From: a virus
DNA length: 64,000 nt
Virus genome (UHGV): UHGV-0375936
Strand: one strand, 5' to 3'
Every line of letters starts with the position of its first letter. Positions within the stretch are counted from its first letter, which is position 1. Below the pieces are notes generated by a model. It was given only the letters and a program-made list of their open reading frames with translations, made no database searches and had not been told where the DNA came from. Both the position numbers and the translations under genes were made by a program. Positions 1,186-60,431 of this stretch are shown one piece after another.

Positions 1186-1221
1186 TTTAATAACTCCAAT
1201 GGTGTTACACCTGGATAATAT

Positions 1222-1890
1222 CTATCTAAGAATATTTTTAGCGAAAAAAGGATCGACTATAAACTCCTTCACCTGTGAGTCATAACCCGAATGTATTTGA
1301 TCGCTACTGAGCAAATACCCGTCTAAATCGTGTGGAAGAATCCAAGAATCCCCCTGTTTAAAAATACCATAATCTGTTGTTCCAGAGGAAAAAACGATTT
1401 CCTCTGGAGAGGGATAGATGTGGCGTAAGGCAAGATCAGACGGCTTTAGCACGATTAATCGAACGGGATGTTGACTGACTGCCTCTTTAATAAACTGTTC
1501 ACGATTAAACCAAATTATTTTTTCGGGGTAAGTTTCGAATTCAGCCCATGTCCGCGTGATAACTAATTTGGAAATCTTTCTCAATTCTTCAGAATGCTCT
1601 GCGTAGCCGATACACTCCTTGCGTACTTCATGATTTTCTACCGATGCTGTGAATTTTTGGAATAGGTGTTGTTGGAAAAAGCCGTTCTCCGGGATATCAC
1701 AACCCGCGTTGTATAGTGCAACGATCTCCCACAACAACGAAAGAGAAAACACAAATGCTAACTTTTCCACAACTTCCCAATCTTCGGAGTAAGGGGCTTT
1801 AAAGCCCCAATACTGCCGTGCGTTATACATAAAGTGAGTTTGTAAAAACCGAGGGGCTTTTGACAAGACCTCACTATAAACGATCAGCAT
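1222..1890 (-). CDS. hypothetical protein
   Basis: 222-aa ORF, 7-nt overlap with upstream gene (translational coupling). Confidence 0.6.
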   Translation of the reverse strand: MLIVYSEVLSKAPRFLQTHFMYNARQYWGFKAPYSEDWEVVEKLAFVFSLSLLWEIVALYNAGCDIPENGFFQQHLFQKFTASVENHEVRKECIGYAEHSEELRKISKLVITRTWAEFETYPEKIIWFNREQFIKEAVSQHPVRLIVLKPSDLALRHIYPSPEEIVFSSGTTDYGIFKQGDSWILPHDLDGYLLSSDQIHSGYDSQVKEFIVDPFFAKNILR

Positions 1891-10644: not shown

Positions 10645-10717
10645 TTCCGTATTCCGTAAGACGAAATGACGGCGCGGACAGCTAATACTCCTTTGTTGTG
10701 TGCCCTAATGATAATAT

Positions 10718-11278
10718 CTATTTAAAAGAGTTTGGAATTAATGACTCTGCTTCTTGGTACAGCTTATCAGGTAAATATAACGTGTAGCGCTGCCTCCTCG
10801 GTTCAAGTTTTTTGTAAAGCCACAAAAAGATTTCTTGTCTTTCCCAGGAATCTAACCACCCATTTGCCATCCCCAGTGGAGGGATAGCAACGCTGGTATC
10901 CAGATCCTCAGCACAGTCTGCTAATGCGGTAATGCCCGCAGTAACATAAGAAACCTGGGATTTTAAACGCCAATGTGTTTTCGTGGGGAGCAAGATACAC
11001 TTTTCGTCAGAGTAAACGTAAACGCTTCCAATCTTAATTTCGTCTTCACGACACCGCTTACGATAATCCTGATAAAGGTTGGGGTAGCGTTCACGACACG
11101 CGAGTGCAATACCGCGACCCATCGCTCCTACGCAGTTAATGGTAACGACTTTATAGTCTTCGGGCGCATTAAAAAGATCGTTACCAATTTCAGATTCTTT
11201 ACGTACCGTTAACATAACGAAACGCCCGGAGTTGATGTGTAGTATTAAAACGTGTACCGCCGATTGATAGCTCGACAA
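10718..11278 (-). CDS. macro-domain-like protein (start codon uncertain: TTG 11278 or ATG 11215)
   Basis: VVTINCVGAMGRGIALA and VAIPPLGMANG segments resemble macro/ADP-ribose-binding fold motifs; weak RBS. Confidence 0.4.
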   Translation of the reverse strand: MSSYQSAVHVLILHINSGRFVMLTVRKESEIGNDLFNAPEDYKVVTINCVGAMGRGIALACRERYPNLYQDYRKRCREDEIKIGSVYVYSDEKCILLPTKTHWRLKSQVSYVTAGITALADCAEDLDTSVAIPPLGMANGWLDSWERQEIFLWLYKKLEPRRQRYTLYLPDKLYQEAESLIPNSFK

Positions 11279-15461: not shown

Positions 15462-16070
15462 TTATTTGGTATACAGCTGATAACCCATTGAAGCCCAATA
15501 ATCAATGTTCTTCGCGTTTTCTACCCAAACCTGTCCCGCCTTTGTGGCTAAGACTTCCATTGTCAATGTACAGATCAGATTTGTTACCTGGATACAATTT
15601 CCAGGTGTAACATCATCCAGATAAACCGGATATAAAAACGGCGATTTAATGGATTGGTACGGGTAAGAATAGTGGCTACCGACTTTCCACCCTTCTTCTA
15701 CAGGGCAGAGATTATAAGTGCGTGTTTCAGGAACTGCGTTTTCAGAGATCCAGTTAACAACATCGGCTTTAATTCGATCGTGGTCGATATAGTAGAACAC
15801 AACACGCTGTGGGATACTTGTGGTACCAGCCGGGTCTAAAGCCTCCAACGCCTTAAAAGGCGACGTTAACAATGTTGTACTGTTCTCAAGCGCGTAAACC
15901 AACTTTTCGTAAGCAGTCGGTGTTTTGCGTTTAAAATATTCCCGTAAGCGAGGGTAAGCCAGGAAGCCCTCTACTTCTTCTTCCATTAAGTCAATGAATA
16001 AAGGCGTATGCGAAAACCGCTCTGCATTTTGCATCGCTTCAAGAAAACGAACTAATGTAATTTCGTTCAT
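15462..16070 (-). CDS. hypothetical protein
   Basis: 202-aa ORF. Confidence 0.55.
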   Translation of the reverse strand: MNEITLVRFLEAMQNAERFSHTPLFIDLMEEEVEGFLAYPRLREYFKRKTPTAYEKLVYALENSTTLLTSPFKALEALDPAGTTSIPQRVVFYYIDHDRIKADVVNWISENAVPETRTYNLCPVEEGWKVGSHYSYPYQSIKSPFLYPVYLDDVTPGNCIQVTNLICTLTMEVLATKAGQVWVENAKNIDYWASMGYQLYTK

Positions 16071-16087
16071 CTGGTCTTTCCTTTTAG

Positions 16088-16118
16088 ATCAAAAAAAGAA
16101 GCCCCGAGTAAACGGGGC
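16088..16118 (-). terminator. Rho-independent terminator
   Basis: GCCCCG-AGTAAA-CGGGGC hairpin with adjacent A-run on plus strand. Confidence 0.5.
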
Positions 16119-16126
16119 CGGGCTAA

Positions 16127-16603
16127 TTACAGCCCTAAGTGCGTGAGTGATAAAATAGGTTGTGTTTCACCTTTAATCGTCGCGTAGGAACGATACATTT
16201 CTGCGTTACTTGAAAAAACTTCGTTAGCAACGATACATTCACCCGTCTCTAAAGAAAGGAGATAAATGTAGTCGCTCCATACGCTTTGTACCAATACCCA
16301 CTCAAGTGCGGTATCATTTTCGCGTGTTGTTCGCAGGTGATGAAAGTAAGGACGGATTGCATCAACCGCCGCATTAAAACGACGGTGATAGATTCGGGTT
16401 AAATCAAAGGTCCAGATTGTTTCCAGGTCGACTGGATGTAATGTGCGCACCGTTTCGATAATCGTCGACTGATCGTTAAGGCGCGAGGCTTCGGCGATAC
16501 GTAGCAGTTTCCAGGCTACCGTTAAGTTGTGGCGAATTTGTTCAGGTTTAGCCGACAGGTCATGATGAAATTGCGCAGCTTGGTAAACGTTAGATAATTG
16601 CAT
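16127..16603 (-). CDS. hypothetical protein
   Basis: 158-aa ORF; conserved initiation context CCTAAAGGAGTATTAAAATG. Confidence 0.55.
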   Translation of the reverse strand: MQLSNVYQAAQFHHDLSAKPEQIRHNLTVAWKLLRIAEASRLNDQSTIIETVRTLHPVDLETIWTFDLTRIYHRRFNAAVDAIRPYFHHLRTTRENDTALEWVLVQSVWSDYIYLLSLETGECIVANEVFSSNAEMYRSYATIKGETQPILSLTHLGL

Positions 16604-16631
16604 TTTAATACTCCTTTAGGTAAATATGTCG

Positions 16632-16658
16632 TAAAAAGGACCCCGGACGTACCGGGGC
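16632..16658 (-). terminator. Rho-independent terminator
   Basis: CCCCGG...CCGGGG hairpin with A-run on plus strand. Confidence 0.5.
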
Positions 16659-16669
16659 CAAGACTACAC

Positions 16670-17059
16670 TCAAAGATCTAATTCGATAGCACCAGCCATC
16701 TTGCCCCGTTCTTCTATAACGATCAGATAACGGTCGCGAGATTTGCTTTTAGCGAGAGTTAAGACAACGGTAGGGTCGCACGTTTTCGTGGTGATAGGAA
16801 GAACCTCTCTTGCGACGGAATCGAGCAGAAAGTAATAACCTGCGGGACACATTGTGCCGCCATCAGCTTTTACCAGAATATAGCGCCCGTCTGCGCCGAC
16901 TTCTTGGCAGATTGTTTCACCGACTTCGCAAACTTCAAACCCCGGAGGATTGTACTGGTAATCGGTATTGTTGTTTGGGGTTAGCAGTAAATCGTTAACT
17001 TGAGTAGATGCTGCTACACTCAGGGAGAAGAAGAATGCTAAAACGCAGACGAGACGCAT
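16670..17059 (-). CDS. small secreted protein
   Basis: N-terminal signal-like MRLVCVLAFFFSLSVAAS. Confidence 0.55.
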   Translation of the reverse strand: MRLVCVLAFFFSLSVAASTQVNDLLLTPNNNTDYQYNPPGFEVCEVGETICQEVGADGRYILVKADGGTMCPAGYYFLLDSVAREVLPITTKTCDPTVVLTLAKSKSRDRYLIVIEERGKMAGAIELDL

Positions 17060-17069
17060 GAGTTACTCC

Positions 17070-17480
17070 TTAAATTTTAAGTTTATCCATAGCTACAACG
17101 ATAGGTTTTTCCGAAGTGTCTAATATCCCTACCATTGGCACACCATCTACGACTTCGAAGAATGGTTTGTTATTACCAGAGCATAGACGTTTGTCGTTGT
17201 ATTCGAGACGCTGAGCCTTCCACGTTTCGAGGTTGAGTACGGACATTGGGCTGTCGTAGCACCAGGCACCACCTTGCTCAACGATGAATACGTATCTGCT
17301 ACCTTTGTATTTAAACAGGCTCTTTGCCTGGCAGTACAACCCGTCTATTTCCGTACAATAGAAATCATCGGTGCTATTGACGTACTTAATATTGTCTGGC
17401 AACTGTATTGTCTTTGCTGTAGCGTTGACAGAGAACAGAACAGCCATTGCAATGAGAAGAGTATTAATGATAGTTTTCAT
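17070..17480 (-). CDS. small secreted protein
   Basis: N-terminal signal-like MKTIINTLLIAMAVLFSVNATA. Confidence 0.55.
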   Translation of the reverse strand: MKTIINTLLIAMAVLFSVNATAKTIQLPDNIKYVNSTDDFYCTEIDGLYCQAKSLFKYKGSRYVFIVEQGGAWCYDSPMSVLNLETWKAQRLEYNDKRLCSGNNKPFFEVVDGVPMVGILDTSEKPIVVAMDKLKI

Positions 17481-17491
17481 GATAAAAGTCC

Positions 17492-17977
17492 TTAGTATTT
17501 AGATTGTTCTACGTACTTCTTAACCAGGTAAGCGAATTCGGCAACACCGATATCACCGAACCAAATCAGGTAACCGGGGTCGATGTTGTAGTAATAACCG
17601 ACGAGTTTCTTGGTGTGTGGGTTGTATAGCGTTACGATGTATTCCCAACCACAAGCGTTAGCTTTACAACCGCCACTTTCAATCCAGATTTTGTTGTTGA
17701 TGTTTACCGGATACATGTTACCGCCAGGGCCATCCATGTAACCTTTAGAGCCGAACATACCATCCAGTCCCACAGGGTCTAGTGTTTTATCAACAACGGC
17801 TTTAAACGACTTATCGGTATCGTACAAGTCGTTGATGTTTGGGCACGCATTTGGCTGGCCTTCCCAAGCGTTTCCATCACAGGTAAGCAATTCGTCTACG
17901 GAGGCCGCATCTACAGTTGGCGTGGCACCGATAAACAAGAAAACCAGAAAGAACATCAGTGTATGTAAACGTTTCAT
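17492..17977 (-). CDS. small secreted protein
   Basis: N-terminal signal-like MKRLHTLMFFLVFLFIGATPTVDAA. Confidence 0.55.
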   Translation of the reverse strand: MKRLHTLMFFLVFLFIGATPTVDAASVDELLTCDGNAWEGQPNACPNINDLYDTDKSFKAVVDKTLDPVGLDGMFGSKGYMDGPGGNMYPVNINNKIWIESGGCKANACGWEYIVTLYNPHTKKLVGYYYNIDPGYLIWFGDIGVAEFAYLVKKYVEQSKY

Positions 17978-17995
17978 TGTAACTACTCCTTTAGA

Positions 17996-18388
17996 TTATT
18001 CGGCAGGACGATTTAAGGTAACGCGTCCGATTAATTCAGCGTTGTGAAAGAAGTCCACAGCGGTATAGTTACCAACTGATAGCGGATGGATACTAACTGA
18101 CATTACTTTTGGTTGTTCGCAGGCGATATCCGTCAGGCGTTGGTAGACTTGTGCACGAGTGTCAGCAATGAGTAATCCCGTACACGTTTCACCACGCACT
18201 AAACGATAAACTTGCAGTTTACCGAAACTGCGCATTAACGTAGGCGTCTCATCCGGGTTGATAATCGGTGACTCAGGAGCCGGTTCGTAATAGCGGACAT
18301 CCGAATCACCGAAAGCATAAGTGCCAGTAATTCCGACCGCACAGAAAACAATGATAGTATAAAGTATAGTTCTGATATTCATTTTCAC
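17996..18388 (-). CDS. small secreted protein
   Basis: N-terminal signal-like MKMNIRTILYTIIVFCAVGITGTYA. Confidence 0.55.
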   Translation of the reverse strand: MKMNIRTILYTIIVFCAVGITGTYAFGDSDVRYYEPAPESPIINPDETPTLMRSFGKLQVYRLVRGETCTGLLIADTRAQVYQRLTDIACEQPKVMSVSIHPLSVGNYTAVDFFHNAELIGRVTLNRPAE

Positions 18389-18410
18389 GCACTCTAAAAA
18401 AGATTAATAC

Positions 18411-18872
18411 TTATTTGTTAGGACGGGTGTGTCCACAGTTCTGGAAGAAAGTTTCAGATAAACGATCGCCTTCTACGGTAAAGTTAGCGGCATCGTTACC
18501 ATTGATACTCACACTGAAAGTTTTGGCATTACCGATAGCATTAACGAAAGCAACCCAAGCGTGTTCTGCCTTGTCGCTACCGTCCACGGTAGGGATGTTA
18601 TAGGTTTTGCCGTTTACGACAATATCCATCATGTTATCTTCAGCGTTAGTTGCACCTACGGGTTCCCCGTAATACCAAACCATGCGACCGTAAAATTTGC
18701 GATTCACAGTTTCTGTGTCACAGTTGATAGACAGTCCGTTTCCGGCGGTGTCTTCGATTTCGTAAACTGCCTGGCCAGGGTTTTGTATTTGTTCCCAACT
18801 ATTGATTGCAGCGTATGCGCTATTGAGGCCGAAAGTTAAAATGGTTATTAAGAATGTGATAAAGGTTTTCAT
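18411..18872 (-). CDS. small secreted protein
   Basis: N-terminal signal-like MKTFITFLITILTFGLNSAYA. Confidence 0.55.
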   Translation of the reverse strand: MKTFITFLITILTFGLNSAYAAINSWEQIQNPGQAVYEIEDTAGNGLSINCDTETVNRKFYGRMVWYYGEPVGATNAEDNMMDIVVNGKTYNIPTVDGSDKAEHAWVAFVNAIGNAKTFSVSINGNDAANFTVEGDRLSETFFQNCGHTRPNK

Positions 18873-18918
18873 TGAAATGCTCCTTCGAGTTATGGGGAAG
18901 CTCCCACAAATTATGAAA

Positions 18919-19290
18919 TTAAATAACTGTGTTGGGTAATGCTTTAATCTGTGTATAACTATCTCCGATACCTCTTATCATTTCCAGACGCTCTTCTGTA
19001 GAAAGGCTTTGGTTAATGTCTTTGTCAAGATTGAACAGTGTCAAGAGTTTTGCAATTGCAACCGTCAAGTTGTCGGACAGCTCGTTGTTTTTACGCCATT
19101 CTTCGTTACGGAAAATAGAGATAAGGTCTTTCGCCTGGCCTTCAGCGTGCGGTTTGGCTAACTGCGCGTCACGCTGTTCGATAAGGTATGCTTCGTTAGT
19201 AAGTAAACGTTTCAGGTTTTCTGGGTTAGTGGCAGCGCGAGTAACGATCATTAATACAACAAACGGGTCTTTAAATAATTCGTTTTTCAT
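18919..19290 (-). CDS. hypothetical protein
   Basis: 123-aa ORF directly downstream of a conserved promoter-like element. Confidence 0.55.
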   Translation of the reverse strand: MKNELFKDPFVVLMIVTRAATNPENLKRLLTNEAYLIEQRDAQLAKPHAEGQAKDLISIFRNEEWRKNNELSDNLTVAIAKLLTLFNLDKDINQSLSTEERLEMIRGIGDSYTQIKALPNTVI

Positions 19291-19295
19291 CTTTA

Positions 19296-19373
19296 GTTCT
19301 CCTAAAATGGTTTTCGTTAAGTGAGAGCTTTTGTACTCTCACCTAAGTAATATATATCTGAAATTATTTTTAA
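19296..19373 (-). promoter_or_regulatory. conserved AT-rich box plus 5' hairpin element (copy 1)
   Basis: Near-identical to 55955..56027; minus strand reads TTTCAGATATATATTACTTAGG then hairpin GTGAGAG-TACAAAAGC-CTCTCAC then RBS and ATG. Confidence 0.45.
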
Positions 19374-19383
19374 TATTAACGAA

Positions 19384-19416
19384 CAAAAAAATAAAAGGTG
19401 GGGGTAAACCCCCCAC
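19384..19416 (-). terminator. Rho-independent terminator
   Basis: GGTGGGGG-TAAA-CCCCCACC hairpin with A-run on plus strand. Confidence 0.55.
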
Positions 19417-19421
19417 CGATG

Positions 19422-22617: not shown

Positions 22618-23352
22618 TTACGCGGTTTTAATTAGCAGCAGATAGCCCTTCGTAATCTCAGCACAACTCCACCCTTTTACGGCAGCGACACCACGAAGGT
22701 AATTTTCTGTGTGATACTGTAAAAACGGATCGTCTGGATTAATCTCAACTAGGTGAGTGGCTTTAGAAATCGTTTCCGCCTCTGGGATTTGTTTTGTTAA
22801 GCCTGATGCAATCAGTTCAATAACGCGGTATCCCTCTAACCAAGAAACATAGATACGTAAACCGTATAACTTACCGTTATCTTTTAAGGGATAAAGACTG
22901 ATGTCCCGGCCGAGCAACGTTAATTCTACATCAGTGGGAAGGTTTTCTACATGCTTGATTAACCCTACCCCATGTCTAAACAGTGGGAAGTAAGAGTATA
23001 GCGTCAGCATACTGCTTCCTCCAATAAACGTAACATCGGAAACGGTAGGCGTGCTGGCAATGAGGCGAACATGTTCCGCTACGACTTCAAGTTCGGCGTC
23101 ACTGATCAATTTATAGAATAAAATGACGCTGGTTTCGGTATTAAGAACAAAGAAGAACCGGTTGGCGTGACTGCTTATCGTGTATTCGTCAACCATGCTG
23201 TCGATAACGTCACTGTCTGGATAATCTTCGGGTTTAATTGTTTCAGCAGAGACTAACTTAGCAGGTTGGGATTGCCCTATTAGTTCATTAACCACCGTAG
23301 AAGAAAGTTCTAAACTGGTGTTAGTAAAGATATCGTCTAATAATTCTCTCAT
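22618..23352 (-). CDS. hypothetical protein, tandem paralog family member
   Basis: N-terminal LLDDIF and C-terminal KGWSCAEITKGYLLLI related to the three neighbours. Confidence 0.55.
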   Translation of the reverse strand: MRELLDDIFTNTSLELSSTVVNELIGQSQPAKLVSAETIKPEDYPDSDVIDSMVDEYTISSHANRFFFVLNTETSVILFYKLISDAELEVVAEHVRLIASTPTVSDVTFIGGSSMLTLYSYFPLFRHGVGLIKHVENLPTDVELTLLGRDISLYPLKDNGKLYGLRIYVSWLEGYRVIELIASGLTKQIPEAETISKATHLVEINPDDPFLQYHTENYLRGVAAVKGWSCAEITKGYLLLIKTA

Positions 23353-23558
23353 GATTTACTCGCTAATCTCAATAAAGGGGAGTCTATTATTATGGATTGT
23401 AAAAGAGGTATAAGGAAGTCACTACGTTCCTCTGGGAAGAGTATGTCGGTATACTACGTATACCTCCGCTATTTATATCCGTATACATAATGCCCCCTAC
23501 CCCCTACCGGTATCCCGAGTAGCAGAATAAAGGGACATAATGTAATTTTTAGTACCTG

Positions 23559-23639
23559 TTATCGGAAGGTACTAAATGGAGTGTAGTCTTTAAGCCGTTT
23601 GAGCAGCTCATTGAGACTTTCTTTCTTTTTAGTAGACAT
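23559..23639 (-). CDS. candidate 26-aa basic peptide
   Basis: ATG preceded by GGAGAG RBS and by the conserved AT-rich box/hairpin; MSTKKKESLNELLKRLKDYTPFSTFR; below track cutoff. Confidence 0.3.
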   Translation of the reverse strand: MSTKKKESLNELLKRLKDYTPFSTFR

Positions 23640-23691
23640 GATCTGTCTCTCCAAATGGTTTAATCAATCCGTTTCGAATGAAACGTGCTCG

Positions 23692-23747
23692 TAGGGACTG
23701 AACTGGTACTTCAGTCCCTATTCACTTAAGTAAAATATATCTGAAAT
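23692..23747 (-). promoter_or_regulatory. conserved AT-rich box plus hairpin element (variant copy)
   Basis: Minus strand ATTTCAGATATATTTTACTTAAG followed by 10-bp stem hairpin AGGGACTGAA/TTCAGTCCCT. Confidence 0.4.
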
Positions 23748-23772: not shown

Positions 23773-24738
23773 ATGGAGAAATCCAGTGTTGATTTTTTCT
23801 CAATTGGTATCGTCGCGGAAGACAAACCCCGTGGTACAGATCGGGTAAAAGTGATACCAATTGAAACCAACTTTGCTAACCCTACCGTGGTGCAATCTGT
23901 TTCTTCAGCAACTGAAAAGACGCATGAAACGTCCGGTGCAACAGATAACCTAACCATTAAGACGGGTAACACGATAACCGCAAAGTGGTGGAAGTTTAAC
24001 TCCAACCGAATTAATTCCCCTGACGTTAAACGAGAAGACTACGTTATCTTGTTGCGTTTGGGGAAAACCGATATTTATTTTTGGATTGATCTGAACTTCG
24101 CTAACGTTAAGCGATTAGAAGATGCGGTTTATGCGTGGTCGGCTGACCCTGAAAACCAAATGGCGGATGACTTGTCCAATGCGTATGTGTTGAACGTTTC
24201 GACGATTGACAAACATATCACGCTAAGAACGAGTATGGTGAATGGCGAGAAAGCGGCGTGGTTGTTTCAGTTTGATAATGCAAACGGTACGTGGCAGTGC
24301 GTTGACCATAAAGGAAACAAGTATTACATTAACTCGGTTGAAGATGATCTCGGGTTTGAGAATGCGATGCTTTCAAAAGTGAACATCAACAAAGAAGATG
24401 CGTTCATTTATTCAAAGCGTTCTATTAACCTGGAAACGAAAACGATTAATGAAAAATGTGAAGTCCGCAATACGGAAGCAGCGAATTCCGTTACGTTTAA
24501 AACACAAACCTGGTTAACAGAAGCGGGCAGTTCGACAACGTTTAAAACGCCGAACTTTAAACAAGAAGGGAAGGAAGCGATGTTCACCGGTAATTTGGAA
24601 ATCGCTAAGAACTTCAAATACGGTGGTACGGGTGAAGGCGTGGGTGTCTTTACGGTTAAAGATGCCATTATTTCCGGTATTACCTTTAGCGTTCACATTC
24701 ACCAAGGTAAACATGGCCCGACATCACCTCCACAGTAA
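23773..24738 (+). CDS. hypothetical protein (possibly virion-associated)
   Basis: 321-aa ORF, first gene of the plus-strand structural block. Confidence 0.55.
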   Translation: MEKSSVDFFSIGIVAEDKPRGTDRVKVIPIETNFANPTVVQSVSSATEKTHETSGATDNLTIKTGNTITAKWWKFNSNRINSPDVKREDYVILLRLGKTDIYFWIDLNFANVKRLEDAVYAWSADPENQMADDLSNAYVLNVSTIDKHITLRTSMVNGEKAAWLFQFDNANGTWQCVDHKGNKYYINSVEDDLGFENAMLSKVNINKEDAFIYSKRSINLETKTINEKCEVRNTEAANSVTFKTQTWLTEAGSSTTFKTPNFKQEGKEAMFTGNLEIAKNFKYGGTGEGVGVFTVKDAIISGITFSVHIHQGKHGPTSPPQ

Positions 24739-26537: not shown

Positions 26538-29500
26538 ATGGCTGTCGTCCTAGACCCACACTTCAAAAAACCGGGGAATAAAATAACCGGTGAAGCGGTC
26601 GCCGTCATTGGTACGAAATACCGAATGTTGGTACCTGCCCACGCCCCTTTTTTCACCACATCCCTGGTGGTCAAGAGCGGCGGCAAAACACTGACCTTAG
26701 GCGACGATTACATTATTACACACCCGTACGAGACCGGTATGTTGCGCACAGCCTATCTCATTCACGGGATGATTTGGATTGTTAATGACAAATACAAATC
26801 GAATTTTACGGTAGATTACCACGCCGTTGGTTGTGGTCAGGCTACCCAACAACAGATTACCGCAGAACGCGAACTCAATAAAGATAAATACCCGACTACG
26901 TGTCAGTGGGACACCGTCATCGGGGACGTTTACTTTCCGCCGGTCGATATCCAGTTCGATTGGGAGAATTGGAAAGGTGAACTGGAATTAATGCAGGCTA
27001 TTGCTGGATTAGGCGATTCGTTAGGGGAAGTCGTGAGTCGACTTAACCCCATCGCACGCAATACCCTGGATTTAGAATACCGTGCTAACAGCAAGGTTAT
27101 CACTTCCGAGCAGTATGCCGCATACGACAATAAAGGTGGGTTCACCTACAACACTACCCGTCATCGTTATAGCTTGAGTTATAAAACTGCAACCTTTAAC
27201 GACTACGCCCTGTCAGTGAAACATAGAATTCCTGCTATTCTGCCAGACATGACGAAATTGAATCCAAACGAACAGATCGATTGGATGCTCTGTTATGCTA
27301 ACGGCGGGGCAAGTATTCTACGGCTGCAGCTAAAACAGCGCAAAATCTCACTGGTCTTAACGGTCGCTATTGGTAGCGGTTCAACAAACTACGATTATAC
27401 GTTAATCAACGGTTTAACTGACGATGAGTTAAAAAACGATATCGATTTTAGTGTAACCCGTCAACCCGGAAACGGTGTTTACGTCATCGTAGTAAAAACA
27501 AATAAACAGACCATGGATTACACATTCAACGTCGATACGCCGCCTGATGAGTTCTCGGCAGGGTATTCGAAAACGGATGTTGCTAAATGGTTGAAGTCTA
27601 AAACGAACATTAACCTGAACTGGTATGCTGGACAAAAAGATTATGTTCAAATTCGTTCTTTACCCGGCGCACCAGAACCTGACGTCGACAACGATGTTTA
27701 CCAGTTAATAGTTAAATACCATCAATTAGTTGAGCAGCTGTATCGTAACGCGCCTGCACACGAACACGTTACACGTAAGGACAACCCGCACACCGATACG
27801 TGGGGCCCGATCCGTGCGTTACAGCTGAATGGTATTGCGTCGGATGCCGCGTTAGCTTACGGGAAAACGAAACAACAGTTAACGGATTATGTTAATGCTA
27901 AGTACCCAACACAAGCAACGTTAACCGCACAGAAAAAACTGCTTCGTGAATCGGCGAACAAGAACGTTAACGGCACGATTACCACACTTCCGGGTTTTAC
28001 TTCGTTCACGACGGAAGTTGATCCGGTTTCGATGTCGAAATACGTGAGTCCTAGTTTTAGCGAAAGCTACGTTAGTAATGGTCACAGGTATCACGGTGCG
28101 CTTCGTTACACAGGAACGAAAAGCGGTTTCAGTGCTAACTTTAATGCGGTGCCTGCCAACCTGCAAGATATTGACTTTATTGTTACCGGACGTAAAACAG
28201 CGTCTGGTAACGAAGCTGTCGGTGCAGTTGGTTTGCGTTTCTACGAAAACCCCGGTAGTAACTCCGGTAAGTTTGTAGAGATTAACGGACAAATCTGGGC
28301 TGGTACCCTTACTATCAGTCTGACATTGAACGGTTACGGGAGTCCGTTACCGTCGGTGCGTTATATTTCTCAAGCCCCTAATCCGGCAATACCGGATGGA
28401 GATTTTACGCTACGTTTTCAACTGAAGCGTACAGGGAACGTGTTTGACGTCGTTATTACCGTAAACGGTAAAACGTATAGCGCCCGGATTAACTTCAATA
28501 ACATGGACGCTGCGTTAGAAGCATTAGAGAATCAGCACCACTTTAAATCGCTGATCAATAATGTTGCCGATGGCGTCAAAATTAGTTCGCAAAACAAAGG
28601 TAACACGGTTACCATTAAGAAAGCACCGGATGTCGTTGACGGAACTCGTTTAGGTGCCCAGTTTGTCGTTGATCCGAAATCCATTAAGTTTATTGGCCAA
28701 GGTTCAACTGATGTTAACGTAGGAAATAACCCCGTAACGTTCCAAGCAGGTACTAACCAGCTTATGTTGTATCCTGACGATCGTGGGTTACAGTGGCGTG
28801 GTAAAAAACTCTTAGACCCTACCACCGTGGCCCCGTATCTGCCAGGTAATACCGCAGGTGGTACCGGTTTATTCTACGCAAGCTCGACAACAACAGTTAC
28901 GATCACTGGTAGCGGGATAAAAGCTTCGCCGTTCGTAGCGACCTTTATTCTCCCTACCGCGACCGATACAACGGCTCTGGCAGCTTGGCAGTTGACCGAT
29001 GAGTTCGGTACTGCTGAAAACCTTGCAGCAACGCCAGCACTGATTGAAAAACTGGATGCGGAGTTCACCGGTAAGTTAGTTGCAGTTAAATCGTACATTA
29101 ACGACATGCAGCTTACCAGCTCGGTTACTATCGATAAGATTACCTTCGGTTTAGGTAATGTTGCGAATACGCCCGATGTCAATTTACCGATTTCTACAGC
29201 ACAGCGTGCGGAGTTAGATAAATACTCGCCTAAGGTTCACCAACACCCGTTTACCGCTTTTGGTACCGGGAACGCAACCACAGCGAAACGCGGTCTGATT
29301 AAATTTGGTCTGGATGTGGATGATGCGACTTTAGCACTCGATGGGAGTGTGGTAATGGCGCAGACTTCCCAGATTGAAAAATTGGAGAGTGCTGTCGGCG
29401 GCGTTGACTCGGAGGCACGTCTTGATATCATACGTTTTGGTGAGTCTGGTAACGACTTAATAGACGTTACGGTCAAAGACAAAATTCTGGTCACGCTTCC

Positions 29501-30860
29501 AGCTTCAACGTATTTTATCGGTGGCGAAACGTACACCGTACCGTTGATGACGATTAACGTTAGTGAACGTTTTCCGAAATTGAATACAGAGATCTACGCG
29601 GGGATTTTTGTTGATATTGTTGATAACAAAGCGAAGTATATTATCCACGACAGCTACAGTCAGGCCGAAACGGATACCATGACGCGTGTGGGGTTGATCG
29701 GCGTCAACGACCTTTCTGAGGTGTTCGTTACAGAGATGCGTAATGTCACACGGTTGGGTGATTTCCGTGAACTGAAAGATCATAAAGCCGATGACAACGC
29801 ACACATTCAGCGCTCCGCATCACGTGCAGCGCTTGGGTTAGCTAACTTAACCGTAGGTGCGCCTTGCTGGGCTTCTGGACTCCAGGCAGTAGTACGCGGT
29901 GAAGCAGATTGGCGTTATGTTGCCGGTGGACAGTATAAAGCTTTAGACGGGGTGAAATACGACCAGCTCGCATCCAAGTGGATTTTTGACGCGAAAGGGG
30001 TAAGCGATAACCTACACGGGTTTATCCACAACATGTTCCCAGCTTTTAAGAACGCAGGAATGCGGGTAAGTTGGGAAACAGAAAGCAACGCAAAAACCGG
30101 CACGGTGTTAGAAACTGTTTTAGGTTGTTGGAAAAACACCGACGGCGAGTTTATGCGGTTGTCGTTACTTATCACTCGTGGTTATCGTTTAACTGACAGC
30201 AACGGTGAGTATTGTTACGCAGGGTTCGGTTTGAACTTCGGTAGCGGGAAATCGGTAGTGTTAGGTTTCACACCAACGAAGCGTGTTACGCCTGCACCGT
30301 GGAATACGTTACAACCTGACGTAACGTTTACCCACACCCGTGCTGCAAATAACGCATTAACGTTTAACGCAACACTGACCTTAGCGGGCACTACGTATAC
30401 CGTCGTGGTGTTTTTATCTGCGACAGATAAATACGTAAGCTGCACGGCAGCAGGGGGAGCTACGCAGAAAATCCCTCTAACTGACCGTTTAACAGGGTTC
30501 AACCTCGCACCTATCGTTAACGATCCGTATACCCCTATTTACTACGGTTTAGGGGGACTTTATGAGGATGAGGTTCGTGCCAACATCCGTTCTACGGCAG
30601 ACAGCGCAACCGCGAATAAAGTCTACGGTACGTTGTTAGACTATATTAGCAACTATTCCTCATTAAATCGTGTGCGCGTTATGGAATTGAGCGGTGTCAG
30701 TTCAGACCCCGAAACGCTTAATGCGTTAGTGGCAACTGAATTTAATAACAACCTGGCGGATTACGCCGCGTTACCGATACCTTCTTATCTTAACAAGGAG
30801 CGCGTAATGTCGTTTATCGACACCAACAATAAAGTGCAGGCGGTAATCATTCGCGATTAA
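26538..30860 (+). CDS. tail-fibre-like protein (paralog 1 of 4)
   Basis: 1440 aa; N-terminal PFF...G..L.LG.DY domain shared with next three genes; T4 gp34/gp12-like repeat (NATTAKRGLIKFG). Confidence 0.65.
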   Translation: MAVVLDPHFKKPGNKITGEAVAVIGTKYRMLVPAHAPFFTTSLVVKSGGKTLTLGDDYIITHPYETGMLRTAYLIHGMIWIVNDKYKSNFTVDYHAVGCGQATQQQITAERELNKDKYPTTCQWDTVIGDVYFPPVDIQFDWENWKGELELMQAIAGLGDSLGEVVSRLNPIARNTLDLEYRANSKVITSEQYAAYDNKGGFTYNTTRHRYSLSYKTATFNDYALSVKHRIPAILPDMTKLNPNEQIDWMLCYANGGASILRLQLKQRKISLVLTVAIGSGSTNYDYTLINGLTDDELKNDIDFSVTRQPGNGVYVIVVKTNKQTMDYTFNVDTPPDEFSAGYSKTDVAKWLKSKTNINLNWYAGQKDYVQIRSLPGAPEPDVDNDVYQLIVKYHQLVEQLYRNAPAHEHVTRKDNPHTDTWGPIRALQLNGIASDAALAYGKTKQQLTDYVNAKYPTQATLTAQKKLLRESANKNVNGTITTLPGFTSFTTEVDPVSMSKYVSPSFSESYVSNGHRYHGALRYTGTKSGFSANFNAVPANLQDIDFIVTGRKTASGNEAVGAVGLRFYENPGSNSGKFVEINGQIWAGTLTISLTLNGYGSPLPSVRYISQAPNPAIPDGDFTLRFQLKRTGNVFDVVITVNGKTYSARINFNNMDAALEALENQHHFKSLINNVADGVKISSQNKGNTVTIKKAPDVVDGTRLGAQFVVDPKSIKFIGQGSTDVNVGNNPVTFQAGTNQLMLYPDDRGLQWRGKKLLDPTTVAPYLPGNTAGGTGLFYASSTTTVTITGSGIKASPFVATFILPTATDTTALAAWQLTDEFGTAENLAATPALIEKLDAEFTGKLVAVKSYINDMQLTSSVTIDKITFGLGNVANTPDVNLPISTAQRAELDKYSPKVHQHPFTAFGTGNATTAKRGLIKFGLDVDDATLALDGSVVMAQTSQIEKLESAVGGVDSEARLDIIRFGESGNDLIDVTVKDKILVTLPASTYFIGGETYTVPLMTINVSERFPKLNTEIYAGIFVDIVDNKAKYIIHDSYSQAETDTMTRVGLIGVNDLSEVFVTEMRNVTRLGDFRELKDHKADDNAHIQRSASRAALGLANLTVGAPCWASGLQAVVRGEADWRYVAGGQYKALDGVKYDQLASKWIFDAKGVSDNLHGFIHNMFPAFKNAGMRVSWETESNAKTGTVLETVLGCWKNTDGEFMRLSLLITRGYRLTDSNGEYCYAGFGLNFGSGKSVVLGFTPTKRVTPAPWNTLQPDVTFTHTRAANNALTFNATLTLAGTTYTVVVFLSATDKYVSCTAAGGATQKIPLTDRLTGFNLAPIVNDPYTPIYYGLGGLYEDEVRANIRSTADSATANKVYGTLLDYISNYSSLNRVRVMELSGVSSDPETLNALVATEFNNNLADYAALPIPSYLNKERVMSFIDTNNKVQAVIIRD

Positions 30861-30873
30861 GGAGAATTTTTTG

Positions 30874-35055: not shown

Positions 35056-35093
35056 GACAGACTGCCTGCGGGCAGTTGTGTGTCCGTAGGTAA

Positions 35094-35130
35094 CCCCTCC
35101 CTGTAATGGGGAGGGGTATCCATTTTATTT
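35094..35130 (+). terminator. intergenic hairpin / possible attenuator
   Basis: CCCCTCCC-TGTAAT-GGGAGGGG hairpin with T-rich tail between fibre genes 2 and 3. Confidence 0.45.
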
Positions 35131-35149
35131 AAAAGTAGGAGTCTTTACG

Positions 35150-40336: not shown

Positions 40337-40376
40337 CGCCACGAGACAAGGACGTCTCGGATTAAGGAGAGTGGCC

Positions 40377-55440: not shown

Positions 55441-55947
55441 TTAAACGTTGAAGTTAAAACGTACGTCTAAGATATTGGATATAAGATTGAAAAGTTCAAC
55501 TTTGGTAGCTAAACCGGCTCTTAAGTAAACGTCAAAGCTATCCTTACGGAAACTAAATTTAACCGAACTACCTAGCTCCTTTCTGAACTCGTCATAAAGT
55601 TCGTACTTATCGACATCCGTTAAGTCTTTATCGAATTCTACCGTGAAGCGATATTTTTCTTTGGCTTCCATTCCTTTAGTGTAAACCGCACATTTAGCGG
55701 TGGTGGTACCGACGATTTCGCACACCATATTGAACATTTCCTCATCGGTACGTACTGCGGCGGTGTAACCAATATCGATGGAGTCTTTACGGAAACCCAT
55801 GAAGAACAGCGCACCGAAGTGTTTGCGGAAAGCTTTATATAGCGTATCTTTTTCATCTTCGGTTAATACGTAGTCCAGTTCAACAGTAAACTTGTAATCT
55901 TCTTTAGAAACGAATTCTTTAGCATAATCAACTTTAGTGAAGTTCAT
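55441..55947 (-). CDS. hypothetical protein with internal tandem duplication
   Basis: Two about 65-aa halves share KEDYKFTVELDY...FRKDSIDI / KEKYRFTVEFDK...FRKDSFDV. Confidence 0.5.
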   Translation of the reverse strand: MNFTKVDYAKEFVSKEDYKFTVELDYVLTEDEKDTLYKAFRKHFGALFFMGFRKDSIDIGYTAAVRTDEEMFNMVCEIVGTTTAKCAVYTKGMEAKEKYRFTVEFDKDLTDVDKYELYDEFRKELGSSVKFSFRKDSFDVYLRAGLATKVELFNLISNILDVRFNFNV

Positions 55948-55954
55948 GGTATAT

Positions 55955-56027
55955 TCTCCTAAAATGGTTCGTTAAGTGAGAGCTTTTGTACTCTCACCTA
56001 GGTAATATATATCTGAAATTATTTTTA
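55955..56027 (-). promoter_or_regulatory. conserved AT-rich box plus 5' hairpin element (copy 2)
   Basis: Near-identical to 19296..19373 over about 75 bp, including RBS, hairpin and TTTCAGATATATATTACCTAGG. Confidence 0.45.
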
Positions 56028-59017: not shown

Positions 59018-59461
59018 TTAAATCATACCTGGGAATTCGAAATCGATTTTATCTAAAAGTTTGTAGTCGTCTTTTAGTTGAAGCATTAGTGTATTCTTAA
59101 ACAGTTCAAGTGAACCGATAAAGTAAGCCGTATAGCAGCTACCACGAACAGAAGAGGAAAGACCCAAGTCTCTTAAACACTGTTTCAAGATTTCATGTTC
59201 TTCAGCGGTACCGAAAAGTTGGAAATTGATAACGGTAATCTGTTTATTAATGATTGCCGATAACCATTCTTTAATTCTTCTCGTGGTTATACGTTCTTTG
59301 AAATCACTAGCTTCTGGCAACCAGGTAATGTGAACAAATGGGGCAGCATAGTCGACGAGAACTTTTTGCTGCCAACGTACTTGCATCAAACCACGAATAC
59401 GGTTTGCTAACGTTTCAGAATCACAAAGTAGCATAATGCCATTAGTAGTATTTGGTTTCAT
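59018..59461 (-). CDS. hypothetical protein
   Basis: 147-aa ORF. Confidence 0.5.
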   Translation of the reverse strand: MKPNTTNGIMLLCDSETLANRIRGLMQVRWQQKVLVDYAAPFVHITWLPEASDFKERITTRRIKEWLSAIINKQITVINFQLFGTAEEHEILKQCLRDLGLSSSVRGSCYTAYFIGSLELFKNTLMLQLKDDYKLLDKIDFEFPGMI

Positions 59462-60309
59462 AATTGCCCTTCCTTCTTAATGTAATCTTCAACCAACTTA
59501 TCAAACACGATTTTTATCTTCTCGCGTTCTTCTTCACCCAAATCACCAGAACAGGTCAGCCCATTTATCTTCCCGTACCGTAATTCCAACACATATTTCA
59601 ACCGATGACGTAAGGCTTGTTCAAAATGTGTCGGGATATAGATCGGTTCGAAGTTGTGCAATAAAATAAAATCGTCTTCGGTGTGTTTAGGGGGTTCGAA
59701 TTTTACTCTATCTAAGATAGTAAGCCAGCGTTGTCTGTCGACTAGCCGATCGTCCCAATAAACAGGTTTTGTCTTAGAGGGAGTAAGTGTATTGTAGTTA
59801 CTGGAATCAGAGACACGGAAATTTGCCGTGACATAAGTCTTCGTGAGTAACGAGAGAAGACAAATCGTGCCTTCTTCAGAGTAACTTAAACCCTCGTCGA
59901 GTACGTCTTTAGCTTTCTTGAAGTAGTCTTCGATATAGTCTTCAGCAATCGGTTGAATTTCTACTTCCATACAGCTAATTTGGGGTCCGTCTATCCGTAG
60001 GGGAATTTTTAGTTCAGCAATATATTGCCTATCCGATGTATAAGCTCGCGTAATAATAGGATAAGTAACAGGCTTAGCCAAATGACGATATTCACCAACC
60101 CTAATGACTGCGGAACGTCCAAAGTCACCTTTATTCGATTTTGAAAAACCGTAAAGGTCTTTTAGATACTCCAGATACTGGTCATCAGTCATTTCGTCGG
60201 TATTAAATTCACGAATGTAAAGTTGATTAAAAGATCCCTTTGTTTGTTCGTAGTAATAACCAGGGTCCCTATTTGCTAGAATGTGCGGGAGATAATACGG
60301 GTGATACAT
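59458..60309 (-). CDS. hypothetical protein
   Basis: 283-aa ORF; conserved AT-rich box/hairpin variant upstream. Confidence 0.5.
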   Translation of the reverse strand: MYHPYYLPHILANRDPGYYYEQTKGSFNQLYIREFNTDEMTDDQYLEYLKDLYGFSKSNKGDFGRSAVIRVGEYRHLAKPVTYPIITRAYTSDRQYIAELKIPLRIDGPQISCMEVEIQPIAEDYIEDYFKKAKDVLDEGLSYSEEGTICLLSLLTKTYVTANFRVSDSSNYNTLTPSKTKPVYWDDRLVDRQRWLTILDRVKFEPPKHTEDDFILLHNFEPIYIPTHFEQALRHRLKYVLELRYGKINGLTCSGDLGEEEREKIKIVFDKLVEDYIKKEGQL

Positions 60310-60339
60310 CTAATCCTCCTTTAGGCTATAACTAATGGA

Positions 60340-60381
60340 GTGAACGTAAATTTCACTCTCTCCTAGGTAATATATATCTGA
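60340..60381 (-). promoter_or_regulatory. conserved AT-rich box plus hairpin element (variant copy)
   Basis: Minus strand TTCTCAGATATATATTACCTAGG followed by hairpin GAGTGAA/TTCACTC. Confidence 0.4.
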
Positions 60382-60427
60382 GAAAAAATATAAAAACCGT
60401 AGGATGGACTAAGTCCATCCTACGGTT
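60381..60427 (-). terminator. Rho-independent terminator
   Basis: Long stem CCGTAGGATGGACT / AGTCCATCCTACGG with A-rich run on plus strand. Confidence 0.55.
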
Positions 60428-60431
60428 TAAA

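Follow-up and report, generated by a model that had tools for sequence, protein, structure and literature searches.

Results

Box copies in the 64-kb window

The DNA analysed here (the window) is a stretch of 64 kb and is part of a ~225 kb SPN3US/Erwinia-type jumbo phage; its virion proteins match SPN3US-group families, and it is 92-95% identical to two contigs of 220-225 kb. Between the baseplate gene on the plus strand (23773-24738) and the early region on the minus strand, a divergent gap contains an AT-rich box and a hairpin (Table 1; boxes are named by their first coordinate). The long leader or short-ORF region beyond the hairpin has a second small hairpin (23670-23686), a third hairpin, a 26-aa ORF (23560-23640) with a GGAGAG ribosome-binding site, and two more ORFs (14 and 32 aa). 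The next gene, 22618-23352, encodes a protein of 244 aa. Rfam at the gathering threshold gave no match in the whole window, this region included, and ARAGORN found no tRNA or tmRNA gene in or near the sites.

The box consensus TCAGATATATWTTACYTARG has four exact matches in the 64-kb window compared with 0.07 expected, and none of 100 dinucleotide shuffles reached four. All four are on the minus strand and intergenic, lie approximately 50-85 nt 5' of minus-strand start codons, contain TATAT(A/T)TTAC and have a stable hairpin directly 3'. The preliminary description had claimed that two further copies (23692-23747 and 60340..60381) keep the core of the box and carry different stem-loops. Both contain an exact match, and their hairpins are unlike in sequence, whereas boxes 19342 and 55997 carry one common hairpin, GGTGAGAGTACAAAAGCTCTCACT (-12.6 kcal/mol, z about -5). 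The order given there, box then hairpin, is that of the sense strand of the adjoining genes, namely the minus strand; on the plus strand the hairpin comes before the box, and the statement is therefore limited to the minus strand.

A position weight matrix was trained only on instances outside this contig and then run across the window. The exact boxes scored 42-71 bits, one weak fifth site scored far lower (box 1210), and all other positions, including coding sequence, scored below 0. Box 1210 belongs to the AGATAGATATTATC subtype that is frequent in SPN3US. It shares bases with the stop codon of gene 1222-1890, and 24 nt separate it from the ATG of gene 448-1185 downstream. The short core TATATWTTAC with one mismatch allowed gave 9 matches compared with 11.8 expected, so it is uninformative outside the four full boxes. 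A motif as frequent inside coding regions as elsewhere would have spoken against a recognition sequence, but coding sequence contains no box copy in the window and none of the 15 found in SPN3US.

Table 1. Boxes, hairpins and neighbouring features in the window, with promoter assignments predicted.
Feature	Position	Strand	Remarks
Predicted promoter box TCAGATATATTTTACTTAAG, core TATATTTTAC	23725..23744	-	Exact match; matrix 45.7 bits
Predicted promoter box TCAGATATATATTACCTAGG	60362..60381	-	Exact match; matrix 42.3 bits
Predicted promoter box TCAGATATATATTACTTAGG, sister copy	19342..19361	-	Exact match; matrix 70.7 bits
Predicted promoter box TCAGATATATATTACCTAGG, sister copy	55997..56016	-	Exact match; matrix 70.3 bits
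Candidate variant box TTAGATAGATATTATCCAGG	1210..1229	-	Matrix 11.6 bits; hairpin of only 4 bp
Weaker candidate variant box TAAAATAGATATTATCATTA	10706..10725	-	5' of transglycosylase gene 9919-10644; without hairpin
Hairpin of 11 bp, TAGGGACTGAA-gtaccag-TTCAGTCCCTA	23692..23720	-	Begins 4 nt past box 23725; -17.3 kcal/mol, z -4.9
Hairpin of 7 bp, GAGTGAA-atttacg-TTCACTC	60338..60358	-	Begins 3 nt past box 60362; -7.6 kcal/mol, z -2.1
Hairpin GGTGAGAGT-acaaaa-GCTCTCACT	19320..19343	-	Final two bases of box 19342 open the stem; -12.6 kcal/mol, z -5.4
Hairpin, same as 19320-19343	55975..55998	-	3' of box 55997
Intrinsic-terminator-like hairpin, 16 pairs and T run	60394..60428	-	Directly 5' of box 60362
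Intrinsic-terminator-like hairpin GGTGGGGGGTTTACCCCCACC and T run	19397..19417	-	5' of box 19342
First gene after box 60362	59458..60309	-	283 aa; without family match
First gene after box 19342	18919..19290	-	123 aa; phrog_27024, function unknown
First gene after box 55997	55441..55947	-	168 aa; without family match
Long leader or short-ORF region	23353..23691	-	Predicted to be driven by promoter 23725

Neighbouring genes and relatives

The terminator-like hairpin next to box 60362 closes the upstream esterase gene (60432-62552), and the first gene after this box has an AGGAGG ribosome-binding site and an ATG 52 nt past the box. The module 19334-18886, after box 19342, is missing from four related contigs. 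The first genes after boxes 19342 and 55997 are not related to each other. Genes after boxes encode small proteins without known function, and the early genes of 201phi2-1 are reported to do the same. Box 55997 lies 11 nt past the preceding stop codon, and a strong terminator was not found upstream of it.

A scan of IMG/VR gave 53 box loci, nearly all in contigs of 200-250 kb. In 57 of 58 unique instances the order is terminator, A-T tract, box, hairpin, unstructured leader, AGGAG and ATG; likewise, 57 of 58 instances in related contigs are intergenic, co-oriented and 5' of operons. The matrix census of SPN3US gave the same placement, with all 15 matches intergenic and co-oriented with the next gene. 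SPN3US boxes 15612, 191600 and 238179 lie in divergent gaps, where a co-oriented upstream unit is absent. Box 15612 precedes the gene pair 15768-17621 / 17704-19299, and gene 17704-19299 is homologous to the phiKZ RNA polymerase subunit gp55 (E 8e-43). phiKZ likewise carries an early promoter ahead of PHIKZ054/055, and early promoters of its type serve genes of non-virion RNA polymerase subunits among others. BLASTP, Pfam and PHROGs gave no link between the 617-aa SPN3US protein encoded after box 15612 and phiKZ gp54, so we do not identify it as chimallin and limit the claim to the homology of the RNA polymerase subunit.

PHROGs and Pfam searches of the 39 ORFs in the window found no RNA polymerase gene. 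The link to a polymerase is therefore made through the two near-identical contigs, both of which encode a 1400-aa protein with 76% identity to the SPN3US protein annotated as RNA polymerase beta subunit.

Properties of the hairpin

The hairpin is present at most canonical boxes, with a mean z of -2.5 over 58 instances. In 40 of 58 instances the final two bases of the box open its stem, a position that by homology is the predicted region of the start site. The box is invariant; the hairpin varies in sequence, in stem length (4-12 bp) and in loop length (3-11 nt).

The hairpins fold better as sense RNA (-8.98 kcal/mol) than as antisense RNA (-7.05 kcal/mol), a gain of 1.9 kcal/mol (p 1.3e-6). 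Random 36-mers average -5.2 kcal/mol despite a higher GC content than the hairpin segments, and the 36 nt after the hairpin segment are unstructured (-2.1 kcal/mol). When the 3' arm was swapped between instances, stability was lost, from -8.3 kcal/mol for the native pairs to -5.0 kcal/mol. The hairpin is thus stable as sense RNA and its arms vary in a compensatory manner, as indicated by the shuffle z, the sense and antisense folds and the arm swap. For the hairpin at 23692..23720, compensatory variants are found in L019, L033 and L035. An alignment by MAFFT with RNAalifold gave no pairs, but an ungapped alignment of this kind does not register variable loops. In phiKZ promoters the hairpin is inconsistent (mean z -0.7, n=7), and at variant boxes it is absent, so it is not required by the promoter class generally.

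Discussion

The box as a probable early promoter of jumbo phages

The preliminary description had taken the box for a recognition sequence, possibly of a phage-specific promoter class. The box is intergenic and strand-specific, its distance to start codons is fixed and its core is a published motif, all of which bears this out. The class has already been described, which the preliminary description did not recognise. The core of phiKZ early promoters is TATATTAC (PMC7058600; PMC7598289), the consensus for 201phi2-1 is TTTRARR_BTATATTACDWHDGTG, and the early promoters of OBP and N1M2 have a matching published consensus (PMC7058600). [quoted passage not shown] The box contains TATATTAC and fits the extended consensus of 201phi2-1, OBP and N1M2, including the upstream TTT and the downstream GTG. 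When the phiKZ DNA was read directly, a common frame TTT-N6-TATATTAC-N2-A-N2-TGA was found, and the box shares with it the TTT 6 nt 5' of the core and the TGA about 5 nt 3'.

The likeness extends beyond the box. Early promoters of phiKZ and 201phi2-1 have extra T/A-rich elements in the -20 and -30 regions. Upstream of the box, conservation reaches about 25 nt further 5' into an A/T tract, where the information profile reads gATTAAAAAtaATTT and is T/A-rich like these elements; the profile positions played no part in choosing the instances. Sites 23725 and 60362 have a less pronounced tract. The ~10-nt AT-rich element with T/A-rich elements at about -20 and -30 is thus shared with the early promoters of phiKZ, 201phi2-1, OBP, N1M2, EL and AR9. 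Shared with phiKZ-type promoters are also the intergenic, co-oriented positions ahead of small genes without known function and of an operon for an RNA polymerase subunit, and a lineage with a gene for a virion-type multisubunit RNA polymerase. Unlike phiKZ-type promoters, the boxes studied here have a clade-specific extended consensus, TCAGATATATWTTACYTARG-GTGAGAG, and, unlike phiKZ, most canonical boxes have a stable hairpin of variable sequence at the predicted +1. Longer box strings with the TATATTAC core had no matches in a literature search, and among the matches listed for the short string TCAGATATATA were only papers on unrelated subjects.

To judge from sequence and placement, the box is very probably an early-gene promoter of a SPN3US/Erwinia-type (phiKZ-related) jumbo phage. 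As a motif, it is the SPN3US-group version of the known phiKZ-like early promoter and mostly ordinary for the phage group.

A likeness to host sigma70, T4 late or T7-type promoters had not been recognised in the preliminary description. Our evidence agrees with this, except that the box contains a sigma70-like -10 hexamer, TATATT. If the box were a strong host sigma70 promoter with a UP-like A/T tract, read by the bacterial polymerase as in the early genes of T4 and T5, this would account for the tract and for the hexamer, which has five of the six positions of TATAAT. Site 55997 is even a minimal sigma70 match (9/12, as TTAATA-16-TATATT). Nevertheless, we consider a host promoter very unlikely. 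In a consensus scan for TTGACA-like -35 and TATAAT-like -10 hexamers spaced 16-18 bp apart, only this one of the four copies reached the sigma70 threshold, and the other three were not called; the number of sigma70-like sites in box regions equals the shuffle expectation. The invariant TCAGA, TTAC, YTARG and GTGA outside the hexamer would be left unexplained, and the exact box is almost confined to contigs of jumbo-phage size. At the homologous phiKZ motif, transcription neither responds to rifampicin nor needs protein synthesis (PMC7598289; PMC13282480). Early timing together with these insensitivities is established for phiKZ and AR9 only (PMC7598289). Given the hexamer in its sequence, the box may see some use by the host polymerase.

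Processing site, operator or mobile cassette as unlikely alternatives

RNase E prefers an AU-rich segment that adjoins a stem-loop, and the box followed by its hairpin resembles this context. The two could therefore be an RNA processing site, at which an endoribonuclease cuts the AU-rich single strand and the hairpin protects the new 5' end; the position of box 55997 just past a stop codon and without a strong terminator upstream would suit such a site. We give this explanation scarcely any credence. Two of the box copies follow strong terminators, so that little read-through RNA would be available for processing. Box 23725 and SPN3US boxes 15612, 191600 and 238179 lie in divergent gaps without a co-oriented unit upstream, and a transcript must therefore begin in the gap that holds box 23725. 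Conservation also continues into the A/T tract, much as phiKZ and 201phi2-1 promoters have elements at -20 and -30, and the core is an experimentally mapped promoter motif (PMC7598289).

The box might instead be an operator for a phage DNA-binding regulator, or a signal for recombination or mobility of a small cassette, and not a polymerase signal. A cassette of ~95 nt with promoter, hairpin, leader and ribosome-binding site is identical before the two unrelated genes that follow boxes 19342 and 55997. Between close relatives, 3 of 33 distinct indel breakpoints lie within 60 nt of a box compared with 0.29 expected (p 0.003), under a uniform model in which the tendency of intergenic DNA to be rich in breakpoints is not considered. 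The cassettes resemble the PeSL (promoter-early stem-loop) cassettes of T4-type phages, which are small repeated units of terminator, early promoter and stem-loop between small variable genes (PMC4122927). They share with PeSLs the identical cassette before unrelated genes, and a few indel junctions of close relatives lie at them. In PeSLs, however, the promoters are of sigma70 type and the stem-loop is the upstream terminator, whereas the promoter here would belong to the vRNAP type of jumbo phages and has a second hairpin 3' of it. PeSLs are themselves both promoters and patches of homology, so a cassette of this kind is compatible with a promoter. An operator alone would not account for the strict orientation, for the constant spacing to ribosome-binding site and start codon or for the match to mapped promoters, whereas a promoter does. 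We therefore regard an operator or mobility signal in place of a promoter as highly improbable, and the evidence for a recombination role of the cassettes as suggestive.

Predicted transcription start and possible role of the hairpin

As an early promoter, the box would be read by the phage's own multisubunit vRNAP, injected with the DNA. By homology to mapped promoters of phiKZ, 201phi2-1 and AR9, the A/T tract gATTAAAAAtaATT at about -35 to -20 would be an upstream recognition element, followed by TTTCAGA, by TATAT(A/T)TTAC centred near -10 and by the initiation region YTARG-GTGA. Mapped starts in phiKZ and 201phi2-1 are about 7-10 nt past the AT-rich element (PMC7598289). Since the recognition elements align with those of mapped promoters, transcription is predicted to start within ~2 nt of the box-terminal GGTG. 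The variable hairpin would then be the first 20-35 nt of the early mRNA, as a 5'-terminal stem-loop; the hairpin at 23692..23720 is predicted to be the 5' stem-loop of its transcript. Should the first transcribed base be the third of GTG, the RNA would lack the outermost 2-3 of the predicted pairs. After the hairpin, the mRNA would continue with an A/U-rich unstructured leader, a strong AGGAG ribosome-binding site and a start codon ~52 nt past the box. The box itself, and not the hairpin, would be the signal for the polymerase.

Phage N4 also injects a virion RNA polymerase for its early genes, and its promoters have a hairpin. That hairpin is an extruded DNA recognition element 5' of the start, with a short defined stem and a loop of 3 nt. 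The hairpin next to most canonical boxes might likewise be recognised as DNA, with transcription starting 3' of it, and such a start would still leave a plausible leader of 25-30 nt. However, the hairpins here are 3' of the conserved box, do not show the N4-type geometry and vary in sequence, stem and loop while the box is constant. They contain 63 G-U pairs in the sense RNA compared with 30 in the antisense RNA, and each G-U pair is a C-A mismatch on the other strand. With DNA parameters their stability is low (mean -4.3 kcal/mol). The G-U bias and the better sense folds point to selection on the sense RNA and not on a cruciform. The mapped starts of phiKZ and 201phi2-1 correspond here to the hairpin base, and a consistent hairpin is lacking in phiKZ promoters and variant boxes. 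N4 transcribes with a single-subunit polymerase, which is not related to the multisubunit enzyme of this lineage. Recognition of the hairpin as in N4 is thus hardly likely at all, and we return to an RNA hairpin at the 5' end of the transcript.

The E. coli ompA leader and the T7 gene 10 (phi10) leader, with a stem-loop at +1, are 5'-terminal stem-loops that stabilise mRNA. The arrangement here is similar, with a hairpin at or a few nt from the predicted 5' end, followed by an A/U-rich leader and a strong Shine-Dalgarno sequence. Leaders of several relatives read TTGTTAACCTAAAGGAG, which we take to resemble the T7 gene 10 leader TTTGTTTAACTTTAAGAAGGAG. The stems here differ from those of ompA and T7 in that they are short and A/U-rich with many G-U pairs, and the transcripts are predicted to come from a multisubunit virion polymerase. 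By analogy with these leaders, the most likely role of the hairpin would be to shield early transcripts from 5'-end-dependent decay, and we put the chance that it is a 5'-terminal stem-loop stabilising early mRNA at about even.

Alternatively, the hairpin at the predicted +1 and the conserved initial transcribed sequence GTGAGAG could be a functional, clade-specific part for early expression in SPN3US/Erwinia-type jumbo phages and not a generic stabiliser, and the cassettes could serve, in the manner of PeSLs, as patches of homology by which early accessory genes are shuffled. We hold this combination to be rather unlikely. The clade-specific part could be what the virion polymerase needs to escape from the promoter or to release its RNA, or what early mRNAs produced in the early infection vesicle need in order to survive, be exported or be translated. 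We found no mention of a hairpin at +1 in the transcriptome papers searched for phiKZ, AR9 and 201phi2-1, and the hairpin at the predicted +1 is what is modestly new here.

Significance

The core result confirms what was known in principle. In practice, the box is a ready marker of early transcription units in this uncultivated ~225 kb jumbo phage and in its SPN3US/Erwinia relatives, and it thereby points to the small early genes that are likeliest to take part in host takeover. As of a 2020 review, no jumbo-phage virion RNA polymerase had been purified (PMC7598289), and a consensus of 35-45 nt with the initial transcribed sequence is therefore a useful template for biochemistry. The 5' hairpin is a testable candidate for the stabilisation of early mRNA.

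Results

The 20-nt pattern TCAGATATATWTTACYTARG, put forward in the preliminary description, is matched exactly at four places in the window, all on the minus strand, compared with a shuffle mean of 0.07; none of 100 shuffles reached four. Each box is intergenic and is followed, in minus-strand order, directly by a hairpin, then by an AGGAG-type ribosome-binding site and a start codon. On the plus strand the hairpin precedes the box; the functional reading is that of the minus strand. No copy lies within coding sequence in the window, so the similar frequency inside coding regions that had been named as an argument against a recognition sequence was not found. A 53-column weight matrix trained solely on instances in other contigs gave the four sites 42-71 bits and a fifth site, 1202-1254 on the minus strand, 11.6 bits; all remaining window positions scored below 0 bits on both strands. 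The looser core AGATAKATRTTAYC with one mismatch had 5 matches in the window (0.15 expected), namely three of the four boxes and two variants. No significant hairpin was found at these two variant boxes.

Features of the window related to the box (boxes are named by their start position)
Feature	Position	Strand	Details
Box copies	19342-19361, 23725-23744, 55997-56016, 60362-60381	-	exact match to TCAGATATATWTTACYTARG
Degenerate boxes, AGATAGATATTATC subtype	1210-1229, 10706-10725	-	directly upstream of genes 448-1185 and 9919-10644
Variant sites of the looser core (within the two degenerate boxes)	1214-1227, 10710-10723	-	AGATAKATRTTAYC with one mismatch
Hairpin of box 23725	23692-23720	-	TAGGGACTGAA/TTCAGTCCCTA; -17.3 kcal/mol, z -4.9
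Hairpin of box 60362	60338-60358	-	GAGTGAA/TTCACTC; -7.6 kcal/mol, z -2.1
Hairpin common to boxes 19342 and 55997		-	GGTGAGAGT/GCTCTCACT; -12.6 kcal/mol, z about -5
Identical ~95-nt cassette (promoter, hairpin, leader, ribosome-binding site)	19297-19391, 55954-56046	-	ahead of two unrelated genes
Second small hairpin	23670-23686	-	ACGTTTC-attc-GAAACG
26-aa ORF	23560-23640	-	GGAGAG ribosome-binding site; MSTKKKESLNELLKRLKDYTPFSTFR
Carbohydrate esterase, 706 aa	60432-62552	-	SASA family and DUF6645 domain; ~50% identity to NanS-p-like proteins

An exact-pattern scan of IMG/VR restricted the box to jumbo-phage contigs: nearly all of the 53 loci were in contigs of 200-250 kb. With the window copies included, 57 of 58 unique instances were built alike: a terminator-like hairpin and its T run come first, then an A/T tract, then the box with its hairpin and, after 20-40 unstructured nt, AGGAG and ATG. 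The median distance from box to start codon was about 52 nt. The sole exception, in a 24-kb contig (L030), looks like a chance match. The box and hairpin are unlikely to be an RNA processing site, because promoter-like elements upstream of the box are conserved too, strong terminators precede two of the copies, and several copies are in divergent gaps. A pure operator or mobility signal would not account for a geometry that is fixed with respect to start codons. Many loci (L003, L005, L006, L010, L034, L045 and others) have a second leader motif, cGAC(T/C)AT(T/C)AA..AAGGAG and TTGTTAACCTAAAGGAG, after the hairpin and just upstream of the Shine-Dalgarno sequence; we take TTGTTAACCTAAAGGAG to resemble the translational enhancer region of the T7 gene 10 leader.

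The earlier claim that two copies are paired with different hairpins was confirmed at 23725 and 60362. Folding of 36 nt from the last two box bases in the 58 instances, window copies included, gave a mean of -9.2 kcal/mol and a mean z of -2.5, and in 40 of the 58 the stem started exactly at these two bases. Hairpins are biased toward the RNA strand. In 50 unique sequences, sense RNA folded at -8.98 kcal/mol and antisense RNA at -7.05 kcal/mol (Wilcoxon p 1.3e-6), with 63 and 30 G-U pairs, respectively. Random 36-mers of the same loci had a mean of -5.2 kcal/mol although their GC content was higher (p 5e-11), and the 36 nt after the hairpin segment, where the ribosome-binding site lies, had a mean of just -2.1 kcal/mol. 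On average, folds with 3' arms exchanged between instances reached only -5.0 kcal/mol, against -8.3 kcal/mol with the native arms, and therefore the arms co-vary; variable loops were not registered by MAFFT and RNAalifold, and this compensatory change is read from the arm swap, not pair by pair. Hairpins at phiKZ sites were inconsistent (mean z -0.7, n=7). Several features make an N4-like DNA-hairpin promoter unlikely: the hairpin varies, lies downstream of the box, is RNA-strand-biased, and is dispensable in phiKZ and in variant boxes. The transcriptome papers of phiKZ (PMC8244752), AR9 and 201phi2-1 (PMC11512511) make no mention of a hairpin at early promoters, and a literature text search with three longer strings containing the box core found no match.

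In the full annotated genome of phage SPN3US, the matrix found 15 matches above 5 bits, all on the majority-gene strand. All 15 are in intergenic gaps and co-oriented with the next gene, and three of these gaps are divergent. Six are canonical (TCAGATATATATTAC) and nine belong to the variant AGATAGATATTATC subtype. The match at 15612 is upstream of a gene for a 617-aa protein, which is followed by a homologue of the phiKZ RNA polymerase subunit gp55 (E 8e-43). This is similar to phiKZ, where an early promoter lies ahead of PHIKZ054/055; sequence comparison gave no support for a chimallin identity of the 617-aa protein. Tandem variant boxes, 72484 and 72682, share one 332-nt gap that follows the gene for the major head protein (NC_027402, 72406-72737; locus L070); they may represent two promoters in series, or one promoter and a short transcript.

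Between 23.8 and 41.6 kb, the plus strand carries the genes of a baseplate protein and of giant virion proteins that are paralogues (phrog_7557, 8078, 7449, 2163). The best tblastn matches of the 1394-aa virion protein were in Erwinia and Salmonella jumbo phages (pEa_SNUABM_29, STsAS, SPN3US, phiEaH2), at just 41-50% identity. PHROGs matches with counterparts in the SPN3US annotation were a ribonuclease, an SMC/SbcC-like protein, a transglycosylase and a radical-SAM pair. Two uncultivated IMG/VR contigs, 225.0 and 220.8 kb long, match the window DNA at 92-95% identity. Each carries the gene for a full-length 1400-aa homologue (76% identity) of an SPN3US protein whose annotation is RNA polymerase beta subunit; no RNA polymerase gene is within the window. 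These data therefore place the window in a phiKZ-related jumbo phage lineage with its own multisubunit RNA polymerases. Four consecutive large genes for paralogous virion structural proteins (26538-41576, plus strand; 1440, 1394, 1728 and 435 aa) have common N-terminal regions, as seen in cross-matches among the four PHROGs, and are syntenic with SPN3US genes at 144-159 kb. On the plus strand at 43716-45945, two neighbouring genes encode radical-SAM domain proteins of 307 and 440 aa (phrog_1802), and a DUF4376 gene comes next; SPN3US has this gene order at 138.8-142.1 kb.

Discussion

The proposal in the preliminary description that the box is a recognition sequence, possibly a phage-specific promoter class, was essentially right. 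In a megablast of window positions 18-26 kb against deposited phages, the box region itself matched unannotated intergenic DNA of the Erwinia phages phiEaH2, Stratton and Asesino. Predicted early-promoter consensus sequences are TATATTAC in phiKZ, TTAWTAVAA_HYWTTTRARR_BTATATTACDWHDGTG in 201phi2-1 and BSHAWWWWWTTTYARRYAKATATTATYWWADTG in OBP, with N1M2 similar to OBP (PMC7058600). The window consensus, gATTAAAAAtaATTTCAGATATATATTACYTAGGTGAGAG, closely fits that of 201phi2-1, with TTT, TATATTAC and a downstream GTG in common. All seven TATATTAC sites in the first 50 kb of phiKZ are ahead of plus-strand genes, and they share with the window box the frame TTT-N6-TATATTAC-N2-A-N2-TGA. The AGATAGATATTATC subtype, including both weak window sites, is similar to the OBP/N1M2 consensus and may mark a promoter subclass with weaker activity or different timing.

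According to a review of jumbo-phage RNA polymerases (PMC7598289), such a motif, an AT-rich element of ~10 nt centred at about -10, precedes presumed early operons in all jumbo phages that encode an RNA polymerase, and in each case with profiled transcripts it was the early promoter of the injected virion RNA polymerase (vRNAP). The transcriptomes of 201phi2-1 (PMC11512511) and phiKZ (PMC8244752) showed this layout too, with further conserved positions around -20 and -30 and with the motif upstream of hypothetical genes. A host sigma70 promoter is unlikely: just one of the four copies has a minimal match, sigma70-like sites are as numerous as expected from shuffles, the invariant positions beyond the -10 hexamer go unexplained, and the homologous phiKZ promoters function without host polymerase (PMC7598289; PMC13282480). 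An early promoter of the vRNAP is the best-supported reading of the box. The injected vRNAP would recognise the A/T tract, TTTCAGA and TATATWTTAC, and transcription would start within about 2 nt of GGTG. The early mRNA would then begin with the hairpin, which likely shields this end from 5'-end-dependent decay, and the unstructured leader and strong Shine-Dalgarno sequence would lead to translation.

In comparisons with close relatives, several indels start at a box or at the hairpin that follows it. The segment 19334-18886, with the hairpin and a 123-aa gene, is missing from four related contigs, and 23681-23580 from a 95%-identical contig (L020). The esterase gene directly upstream of box 60362 is replaced by about 0.7 kb of other DNA in two contigs (L028, L043), and the gene directly downstream is missing from one contig. 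Three of 33 distinct breakpoints were at most 60 nt from a box (0.29 expected under a uniform model, p 0.003), an association that is suggestive only because intergenic DNA attracts breakpoints anyway. The box cassettes and breakpoint pattern recall the promoter-early stem-loop (PeSL) cassettes of T4-type phages (PMC4122927) and may reflect PeSL-like modular shuffling of early genes. The esterase, absent from the closest contigs L028 and L043, looks like a recently acquired accessory gene. Its NanS-p-like comparison proteins are 9-O-acetyl-sialic-acid esterases of Stx-converting E. coli prophages, and this similarity hints at an enteric host. After promoter 23725, about 340 nt (23353-23691, minus strand) hold no long ORF. 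This region also contains a third hairpin (TAGTACCT...AGGTACTA) and two short ORFs (14 and 32 aa); no Rfam match was found in it, and it could encode micro-proteins or non-coding RNA.

Our data indicate that the box belongs with the early promoters of jumbo phages that encode RNA polymerases, a class described before. The window extends it by new members from an uncultivated SPN3US-group phage, and the consistent 5' hairpin and possible cassette-like behaviour are modest additions to this class.
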